Shown one piece after another: positions 9,274-10,025 of a stretch of 15,828 nt of DNA. The DNA comes from a virus (Duplodnaviria > Heunggongvirae > Uroviricota > Caudoviricetes): the IMG/VR virus record IMGVR_UViG_2700989170_000009; one strand, given 5' to 3'. The notes under the pieces are model-generated. The model was not told the origin of the DNA. It saw only the letters and a list, made by a program, of their open reading frames with translations, and made no database searches. The translations under genes and the position numbers were made by a program. How positions within the stretch are numbered: position 1 is the first letter of the stretch; each line of letters begins with the position of its first letter.

Positions 9274-9435
9274 CTACTCTGCTAATTTGCTCAGCCCCAT
9301 GTCTGCGTAAGTGCGATTTACTGCATTTCTCAGGTCTGCGTAGTTCTCCGTTGGCGGCTCCGGTGTGCCCTTGCTGCTCTGTTTTACCAGCGGGTCGCCC
9401 ACCAGCTGCCCGTAAGCTGCAATTTGTGCTGTCAT
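9274..9435 (-). CDS. Hypothetical small protein (53 aa)
   Basis: Not in the supplied ORF track (below its length cutoff). ATG at 9435-9433 with GAGGTGG 4 nt upstream, overlapping the stop of the preceding gene; followed directly by the terminator. Confidence 0.5.
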   Translation of the reverse strand: MTAQIAAYGQLVGDPLVKQSSKGTPEPPTENYADLRNAVNRTYADMGLSKLAE

Positions 9436-9444
9436 ATTGCCACC

Positions 9445-9750
9445 TCAGTGAAGCGATCCGGCATTGTTCTTTTTCATCTCTTCCATCATTTTTTCAGTGA
9501 GCATTACGCACTGAAACCCCATGTTTTTGATGTCTACGGGTTTCATGCCTTTGTCAGTGGATATCACAGGCAGAATATCCTGATACACATCGCGGTCAGG
9601 GTAACTAAGCACACAAAGCTCCCATGATGCCACGGGTGAGGATCCTTCGTCTGTTTCAACCCACCAGCCTGGTGTAGCTGCGCTTATTTGCAGAATCGTG
9701 ATCCGTCCGTTGTGCTTGTAAAATTTTTCACCAAATTTTGGTTCGCTCAT
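9445..9750 (-). CDS. Hypothetical protein (101 aa)
   Basis: ATG at 9750-9748 with strong GGAGAGGTGG Shine-Dalgarno; start overlaps the stop of the upstream gene (ATGA). No family recognised. Confidence 0.6.
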   Translation of the reverse strand: MSEPKFGEKFYKHNGRITILQISAATPGWWVETDEGSSPVASWELCVLSYPDRDVYQDILPVISTDKGMKPVDIKNMGFQCVMLTEKMMEEMKKNNAGSLH

Positions 9751-10025
9751 GATTCCACCTCTCCGGTTTTAACGTTGATTGTTGTTACCTGTTCCGCTTC
9801 GGCAATCTCCCGCTCTGTCAGCGTGGCAAAATTTGCCGCCGTCGTGGTCATGAATGCGCTTATCAGTTCGGGATGTGCTTTCGCGTATCCTTCCCCCGCG
9901 TGGCGGTCTATCGTTCTGATTGCCACCTTTAAAGCGTGCTCTGTCATGTCTAACGCGCGATATTTCGGTTCTGTTCTGTCTCTGCGTTTTTTGAATGATT
10001 TATTAAATTTCCCTGAAGTGTGCAT
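9747..10025 (-). CDS. Hypothetical protein (92 aa) with basic N-terminus, first gene after the ori
   Basis: ATG at 10025-10023 with GAGGGGG upstream; Lys/Arg-rich N-terminal segment (KFNKSFKKRRDR) suggests nucleic-acid binding. No family recognised. Confidence 0.5.
   Translation of the reverse strand: MHTSGKFNKSFKKRRDRTEPKYRALDMTEHALKVAIRTIDRHAGEGYAKAHPELISAFMTTTAANFATLTEREIAEAEQVTTINVKTGEVES

Follow-up and report, generated by a model that had tools for sequence, protein, structure and literature searches.

Two conserved satellite-island gene families and an ssb'-'perC fusion between the replication origin and capsid gene of a Shigella flexneri island

Three open reading frames follow the replication origin

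The virus record IMGVR_UViG_2700989170_000009 (Caudoviricetes) is a stretch of 15,828 nucleotides (nt), which we call the window. It runs from phoQ to an integrase gene, and all island genes lie on the minus strand. By its gene content the window is a phage-inducible chromosomal island (PICI) of the capsid-forming kind (cf-PICI). We studied positions 9,274 to 10,025, where three open reading frames (ORFs) of 92, 101 and 53 amino acids (aa) stand between an iteron origin upstream and the major capsid gene downstream. An earlier reading of this DNA, the original prediction, described them as a three-gene operon of unknowns and as the best candidates for island-specific accessory functions. We find that orf92 and orf101 belong to two conserved families of satellite islands. 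The third ORF is a fusion of the beginning of ssb to the end of perC.

The features of the locus are as follows.

10025..9747, minus strand: orf92, 92 aa, family phrog_1231, with a variable basic N terminus and an invariant helical core GEGYAKAHPELISAFMTTAAANFATLTEREIAEAEQVTTINV
9750..9445, minus strand: orf101, 101 aa, family phrog_27268, an optional cassette gene with a predicted SH3-like beta-barrel and C-terminal helix
9435..9274, minus strand: 53-aa ORF, an ssb'-'perC deletion chimera
9361..9435, minus strand: ssb-derived 5' part of the 53-aa ORF, with the ssb ribosome-binding site (RBS), start and codons 1 to 25
9361..9365, minus strand: deletion junction CACCG, a 5-nt microhomology between ssb and perC
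9274..9360, minus strand: perC/pchE-derived 3' part of the 53-aa ORF, the last 28 codons and stop
10037..10043, minus strand: Shine-Dalgarno motif GAGGGGG of orf92, 11 nt before the ATG
9224..9251, minus strand: intrinsic terminator, 7-bp stem with 5 G-C pairs, T tract
10069..10303, no strand assigned: replication origin, two iteron sets GGTAGACA/GGTAGATA flanking an AT-rich center
10314..12062, minus strand: primase gene (D5_N/Pox_D5), upstream of the origin

The ORFs are as tightly coupled as first described. The orf92 stop overlaps the orf101 start in an ATGA, and the third start follows the orf101 stop after 9 nt. The strong ribosome-binding sites were also confirmed, because a Shine-Dalgarno motif precedes each start: GAGGGGG for orf92 (11-nt spacer), GGAGAGGTGG for orf101 (4 nt), and GAGGTGG for the 53-aa ORF (4 nt). 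The module has its own terminator as well. The hairpin at 9251..9234 reads AGCCGGAGCAATCCGGCT, is followed by a T tract, and closes the module before the capsid operon. The 61 nt around it (9275..9215) fold with an energy of -15.9 kcal/mol (z = -2.9).

A promoter scan before orf92 found no sigma-70-like site. Therefore, what was called an operon is probably the distal end of a longer transcript, one that reaches it by way of the primase gene and the origin. The segment upstream of orf92, TTTTTAAACGAGGGGGT(A/G)AAAATAAA, is kept in related islands with primase-type origins. The iterons of the window origin are of the same type as those of EcCICFT073 (locus L012 among the islands compared here). 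Plus-strand ORFs antisense to the locus are without support, and an Rfam scan of the window gave no match.

The 53-aa ORF is an in-frame fusion of ssb and perC

The 53-aa ORF is not an independent gene. It joins ssb codons 1 to 25 in frame to the last 28 codons of perC/pchE. Its residues 1 to 25 correspond to the N terminus of the island single-stranded DNA-binding protein (SSB), and its last 28 codons and stop are identical to the 3' end of the intact perC of locus L003. The Pfam PerC family (PF06069) matched residues 21 to 49 at profile positions 50 to 77 of 90, with 22.9 bits against a cut-off of 22.6. The Pfam SSB family (PF00436) did not match. In the same slot, four islands have an intact ssb (136 aa) and a perC homologue (82 aa): L002, L003, L012 (EcCICFT073), and L017 (O157:H7 SS52). 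Compared with the intact islands L002 and L003, about 508 bp are absent from the window, at the CACCG microhomology.

We read the 53-aa ORF as most likely a nonfunctional remnant, because the OB fold and the conserved PerC core are both gone. Intact island SSBs have 136 to 150 aa and end in ...IPF. The fusion lacks the OB fold (about 100 aa) and the acidic C-terminal tip D-[DG]-IPF. It also lacks the whole PerC N-terminal core, AE.LE..G.[YW]RRAA..W..V...D..R...RR..C, as aligned to five or six PICI PerC proteins; the length expected for the PerC family is about 75 to 95 aa. The ssb-derived part differs from intact ssb by three nonsynonymous changes and no synonymous change. The junction is present in one piece in 3 of 5426 complete E. 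coli genomes, compared with more than 1300 that have the module. In L001 the Prokaryotic Genome Annotation Pipeline (PGAP) treats this allele as a pair of partial pseudogenes; in E. coli STEC1587 its name for the allele is "PerC family regulator." The database names "single stranded DNA-binding protein" and "PerC family transcriptional regulator" should be replaced by ssb'-'perC pseudogene fusion.

Some islands carry a further insert on the downstream side of perC. This 331-bp cassette, located between perC and the capsid operon (L001 10104-10434), contains a 74-aa gene and a 37-aa ORF named "trigger factor" by PGAP. On either side of the cassette stands a 23-bp direct repeat, which is the terminator sequence. 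The cassette is present in L001, L002, L004, and L017 and absent at window 9230-9252 and in L003.

orf92 is the first gene of a widespread E. coli module

The sequence evidence marks orf92 as a genuine gene under selection. A PHROG hidden Markov model (HMM) search matched it to phrog_1231 with E = 2.9e-51 (residues 12 to 92 on profile positions 3 to 83 of 83), a family annotated "unknown function." Its homologues form 166 clusters, all annotated hypothetical and nearly all from E. coli or Shigella and one from Citrobacter. Among 5426 complete E. coli genomes, 1303 (24%) have the gene, at 1711 places. Its ratio of nonsynonymous to synonymous polymorphism (pN/pS) is 0.26 to 0.5. The core of the protein is invariant, and the basic N terminus is variable.

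The canonical E. coli module reads orf92, ssb, perC (pchE), and terminator, and there the orf92 stop overlaps the ssb start in an ATGA. This orf92-ssb-perC order is common to classical and capsid-forming PICIs with different replicases. The replicase that accompanies orf92 is of the primase type in some islands and of the RepA-helicase type in others, and the iterons are of at least three types. We tested whether the N-terminal variant of orf92 tracks the iteron type and found no covariation.

The AlphaFold2 model of orf92 has a predicted local distance difference test score (pLDDT) of 60, and a fold search returned generic helical hairpins only. The protein is probably a helical hairpin that forms an oligomer, as judged from the model. 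Profile comparison with hhalign found orf92 unrelated to PerC and unrelated to orf101.

Two observations concern the 3' end of orf92. About 45 nt encoding its C-terminal tail (AEQVTTINVKTGE), together with the RBS, are conserved at the DNA level (window 9747-9800; L012 7490-7542; L018 5300-5351). In L018 this segment is joined to an orf101-family gene directly before ssb. The conserved segment, attached there to another gene, therefore behaves either as a recombination junction or as a translation-initiation module that travels with ssb. In addition, P0193, a 202-aa E. coli "single-stranded DNA-binding protein," clusters with orf92. It may be a read-through fusion of orf92 and ssb at the ATGA overlap in some genomes.

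orf101 is a cassette gene of a family found after the origin in many genera

orf101 is likewise a genuine gene by the conservation of its sequence. It matched phrog_27268 in the PHROG HMM search with E = 5.1e-69 (residues 1 to 101 on profile positions 1 to 104 of 104), again a family of "unknown function." An exhaustive HMMER search of 1.84 billion representatives placed seven proteins in the close family, none of them annotated. A profile search extended the family to 63 clusters, with members from Morganellaceae, Salmonella, Klebsiella, Serratia, Citrobacter, Xenorhabdus, and Photorhabdus. Of the complete E. coli genomes, 81 have orf101 and 1303 have orf92. In the window orf101 is a cassette inserted exactly at the orf92/ssb ATGA junction, and the sequences flanking the insert show that the RBS-ATGA motif was duplicated.

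In all 12 loci inspected outside the window lineage, drawn from at least seven genera, no other ORF comes between the island rep gene and the orf101-family gene. These 12 genes begin roughly 250 to 500 bp downstream of rep, and the gap held iterons in all three loci checked, of three different types. The rep genes have three architectures. The islands include capsid-forming PICIs (L005 to L007) and classical PICIs (L008 to L011 and L018). What follows the orf101-family gene varies: an SSB gene with a 4-nt overlap, a gene for a ProQ/FinO-domain protein and then PerC, or the capsid operon directly. A 4-nt overlap of the upstream gene with ssb was found in L012, L011, and L018.

The AlphaFold2 model of orf101 has a pLDDT of 84 and a predicted template modeling score (pTM) of 0.70. 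It consists of a small beta-barrel and a C-terminal helix, and the fold is predicted to be an SH3-like barrel. The best structural neighbors in the PDB are SH3b, Tudor, KOW, and integrase C-terminal domain barrels, with Z scores of at most 5.1. A search of the model against BFVD gave nothing at E <= 0.001. The family has the invariant motif GWW...SPVAAWALC...LPV...GM.P. In the window copy, residue 44, which is at least 90% conserved, is changed from Ala to Glu (A44E). The orf101 profile also matched a TAL effector in the PDB (1.6e-14). We rejected this match, since no single stretch passes; our explanation is that the TAL repeats add up the scores of a short LPVL motif.

We also noted the ProQ/FinO-domain protein itself (174 to 192 aa in called genes), which would place an RNA chaperone in this slot. 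It lies between SSB and PerC, after the orf101-family gene, in L008, L009, L010, L011, L013, L014, and L018. The hosts of these PICIs are Salmonella, Serratia, Providencia, Photorhabdus, and some E. coli.

orf92 and orf101 are conserved satellite-island proteins that do not occur in sequenced phage genomes. Neither was found among 50,697 phage genome records, and the handful of plasmid matches includes at least two in megabase-sized records. Searches with the single proteins and with all members of their alignments gave no Pfam or NCBIfam match; the sole Pfam match at the locus is the PerC tail of the 53-aa ORF. The PADLOC defense HMMs matched none of the three ORFs at E values up to 1. Sequence searches of the PDB gave chance matches only (a TFIIB helix-turn-helix-like match with E = 1 and a UvrA fragment with E = 0.24), and a literature search by locus tag found nothing functional. 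The statement that none of the ORFs resembles a nameable family is thus correct for orf92 and orf101 and wrong for the 53-aa ORF, which has a PerC match and an SSB N terminus. Similarly, two of the proposed three genes are real, as the PHROG matches (3e-51 and 5e-69), the 166 and 63 clusters, and the orf92 pN/pS indicate, but the third is a deletion chimera. The searches and structure models made here lead to the same division. They relate the 53-aa ORF to known ssb and perC, leave orf92 and orf101 without a named relative, and give orf101 an SH3-like model. Conservation across related islands was borne out, since both families are conserved in PICIs.

The island is a decaying copy of an EcCIEDL933-type element

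The window matches annotated E. coli islands (L001 and relatives) gene for gene: integrase, AlpA-type regulator, DUF4222 protein, primase, capsid, protease, portal, connectors, HNH, TerS, and TerL. AlpA, the D5_N/Pox_D5 primase, and DUF4222 were all identified among the island proteins. The chromosomal site lies between phoQ and roxA (ycfD). By gene order and content, the island is of the EcCIEDL933 type. This element, known as OI-51, CP-933C, or Sp7, is now named the capsid-forming PICI EcCIEDL933 (PMC3378721; 10.1101/2022.09.08.507074). Islands of this kind are defined by their gene set, by the absence of tail and lysis genes, and by a size of about 15 kb. In the window we found int, alpA, a primase/rep gene, an iteron origin, a capsid-to-TerL set of its own, and a dedicated attachment site. 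Its major capsid protein is not intact.

Database entries for the exact 92-, 101-, and 53-aa proteins bear names of Shigella flexneri (2a str. 2457T among them), and each protein is recorded on at least 1000 contigs. Therefore, the window is the S. flexneri copy of the island. This copy is decaying, as seen in the ssb/perC deletion, a nonsense codon in the capsid gene, and A44E in orf101. The nonsense codon is an in-frame TGA at 8143-8145 in the major capsid gene (about 8970..7813, minus strand), where the L001 orthologue has Trp276 (TGG). It cuts the product to 275 of 385 aa. Pseudogenes accumulate in Shigella genomes. The truncation probably leaves this copy unable to form capsids by itself. 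With ssb and perC lost and the capsid gene truncated, the S. flexneri island is probably no longer a self-packaging satellite. An intact major capsid protein is required for EcCIEDL933 transfer.

Masked sequence (N runs) at 4553-4595, 5607-5723, and 7235-7324 lies in or beside the TerS, head-closure, and protease genes. Apparent indels in these genes were rejected as mutations, because the masked runs give rise to them in the alignment, and the integrity of the three genes cannot be judged for the same reason.

Two other parts of the island are of note. RgdR is the 99-aa DUF4222 ORF at 12059..12358 (minus strand), upstream of the primase gene, with RGD at residues 20 to 22. It is 69% identical to the L001 copy, and its 3' end overlaps the primase start by 4 nt. 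In OI-51, RgdR activates the LEE (locus of enterocyte effacement) and type III secretion (PMC3378721). The interval between rgdR and alpA (window 12370-14030) is unlike that of L001 and includes a 248-aa ORF (13232..13978, minus strand) without a Pfam match. L008 also has a 248-aa ORF without a Pfam match, located after its integrase gene.

Proposed origin and role of the module

We consider it very likely that the three-ORF stretch is the post-origin part of an EcCIEDL933/OI-51-type cf-PICI, changed by insertion of the orf101 cassette and then by the ssb'-'perC deletion. A canonical orf92-ssb-perC module gained the cassette at its ATGA junction, with duplication of the RBS-ATGA. A later deletion of about 508 bp at CACCG joined ssb and perC in frame to give the 53-aa ORF.

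The module would be transcribed as the tail of an AlpA-dependent transcript that spans the primase gene and origin, with its end at the terminator (9251..9234). orf92 and orf101 would then be made in a fixed ratio with the island SSB. Their targets may be island DNA during replication or host proteins of replication or transcription, and they would neither block a helper nor redirect packaging. As its model suggests, orf101 may be an SH3-like barrel that binds protein or nucleic acid, and both proteins may be adaptors rather than enzymes. We propose tentatively, and with some doubt, that orf92 and orf101 are dispensable modular accessory factors of the replication phase of the island itself. 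Taken as a whole, anatomy and function together, this best explanation has about an even chance of being right.

A bolder and rather unlikely idea is that the orf101 family is an unrecognized near-core component of Enterobacterales PICIs, always first after the origin whatever the replicase, iteron, or packaging type. It could be an adaptor that links island replication to the host replisome or RNA polymerase, or to the late-expression switch. orf92 could be its E. coli-specific analogue in the same ssb-coupled position.

Several points weigh against our account. The replication-phase role is drawn solely from position, co-orientation, and translational coupling, and no homology or experiment assigns a function. 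orf92 is independent of replicase and iteron type, which argues against an origin-specific role. The Morganellaceae cf-PICIs have an orf101 homologue without any ssb, and a strict partnership with SSB is thereby excluded. The pBAD18 interference clones in the supplement of Fillol-Salom 2019 (PMC6739421) start at c1499, so they apparently omit the orf92 homologue; we had assumed that this study covered it and dropped the assumption. As for the 53-aa ORF, it has an intact frame and a strong RBS, its allele is fixed in S. flexneri, and the E. coli carriers of the junction have it at two attachment sites (tqsA; phoQ/roxA).

These last features would suit a functional new microprotein, such as a PerC C-terminal peptide placed on the ssb translation signals and retained by selection in S. 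flexneri. So would the terminator that follows, the exact 53-aa sequence on at least 1000 S. flexneri contigs, the recurrence of the junction in three E. coli genomes, the 100% identity of the PerC-derived part to intact perC, and the PGAP name in STEC1587. However, neither the SSB OB fold nor the invariant core of PerC is left, and one in three deletions is expected to end in frame by chance. The fusion has since gained three substitutions, each of them nonsynonymous and in the ssb-derived part. The capsid nonsense codon and A44E in the same copy fit general decay, and the many S. flexneri records are due to clonal descent and intensive sequencing. A functional microprotein is therefore very improbable. 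We find it improbable, too, that the locus holds three independent accessory genes for helper interference or packaging redirection, like Ppi, Rpp, Sid, and CpmAB. The original prediction had pointed to this slot, and SaPIs (Staphylococcus aureus pathogenicity islands) and classical PICIs do carry interference genes after the origin (PMC6092414; PMC6739421). orf92 and orf101 are also uncharacterized and absent from phage genomes. Yet nothing in our results points to such functions. The third ORF is a remnant, and neither of the others resembles RppA: compared by BLASTP with the 144-aa protein that EcCICFT073 has at the rppA position, orf101 scored E = 2.1 and orf92 E = 20. Deletion of c1503/rppA alone in EcCICFT073 restored lambda plaques, with titers nearly at the island-free level (PMC6739421), although that island has a 72%-identical orf92 homologue. 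EcCIEDL933, the prototype of the cf-PICIs, did not interfere with its helper, and cf-PICIs with their own capsids and terminase need no redirection (10.1101/2022.09.08.507074). Moreover, the module is common to islands with quite different packaging strategies.

It is unlikely, if less remote, that orf92, orf101, or both are small regulators of host or island transcription, comparable to RgdR and PerC/Pch, or a switch for the late packaging operon. Two such regulators are already island-encoded, namely RgdR and, in intact relatives, PerC. The module lies directly upstream of the capsid operon, orf92 is small and helical with a basic N terminus, and the weak structural neighbors of the orf101 model include RNA-polymerase-binding Tudor, KOW, and CarD-type barrels. 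Against this, Pfam, PDB, and family scans detected no DNA-binding domain, the TFIIB-like match having E = 1. The OI-51 fragment z1835-z1843 restored type III secretion, but deletions traced the requirement to the interval between z1841 and z1842, the site of rgdR (PMC3378721), and the fragment may or may not include the orf92 homologue. Cargo for defense or anti-defense has only the slimmest chance of being the answer. The genes are small, variably present, and cassette-like, and PICIs reportedly carry immune systems. However, there was no PADLOC match, and orf92 is nearly ubiquitous in this island type. The coupling to ssb within a replication-phase transcript, and a position held strictly behind the origin in genus after genus, speak more for a life-cycle function than for cargo.

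We return to a post-origin module that may serve the island itself. It is a widespread, already annotated but uncharacterized part of a known island type, present here as a partly decayed copy. The expectation of island-specific accessory functions holds insofar as orf92 and orf101 are tied to satellite islands, but the module is not specific to this one, as its orf92 gene in 1303 of 5426 E. coli genomes makes clear. Nothing here will surprise a specialist, and no mechanism is established. The analysis delimits two conserved, unstudied PICI gene families with exact cassette boundaries, and the orf101 family is a marker for the site immediately behind the origin in PICIs from many genera.

Comparison with known systems

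EcCIEDL933/OI-51 shares with the window the phoQ-ycfD/roxA site and the order of int, alpA, rgdR, primase, iteron origin, small genes, and the capsid-protease-portal-connectors-HNH-TerS-TerL set. OI-51 carries a presumed single-stranded DNA-binding protein and the PerC homologue PchE (Flockhart et al., PMC3378721). Three features set the window apart from EcCIEDL933: the loss of about 508 bp that fused ssb and perC, the added orf101 cassette, and the nonsense codon in the capsid gene. The small genes before ssb were never characterized in the EcCIEDL933 papers.

The classical PICI EcCICFT073 has orf85-ssb-perC at this place, and its orf85 protein is 72% identical to orf92. It resembles the window in iteron type, RBS, and the ATGA junction, which there leads into ssb. 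Unlike the window, it has no orf101, and its ssb and perC are intact. Its downstream genes also differ, encoding capsid remodeling and RppA instead of a full capsid and terminase set. With respect to the PerC/Pch family, the 53-aa ORF shares its C-terminal 28 residues with the island PerC (PchE type), and the N-terminal core is deleted. As far as PMC11773190 cites Porter 2005, the intact PICI-type PerC proteins of EcCIEDL933 and EcCICFT073 had no effect on LEE1 promoter fusions.

SaPI Ppi and CpmAB, PICI RppA, and P4 Sid and Psu are, like orf92 and orf101, small satellite-specific proteins encoded after the origin of a satellite. orf92 and orf101 have no sequence similarity to RppA. Islands of the window's type produce capsids and terminase themselves, and no interference was seen with them. 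The coupling of orf92 and orf101 is to ssb and not to morphogenesis genes.

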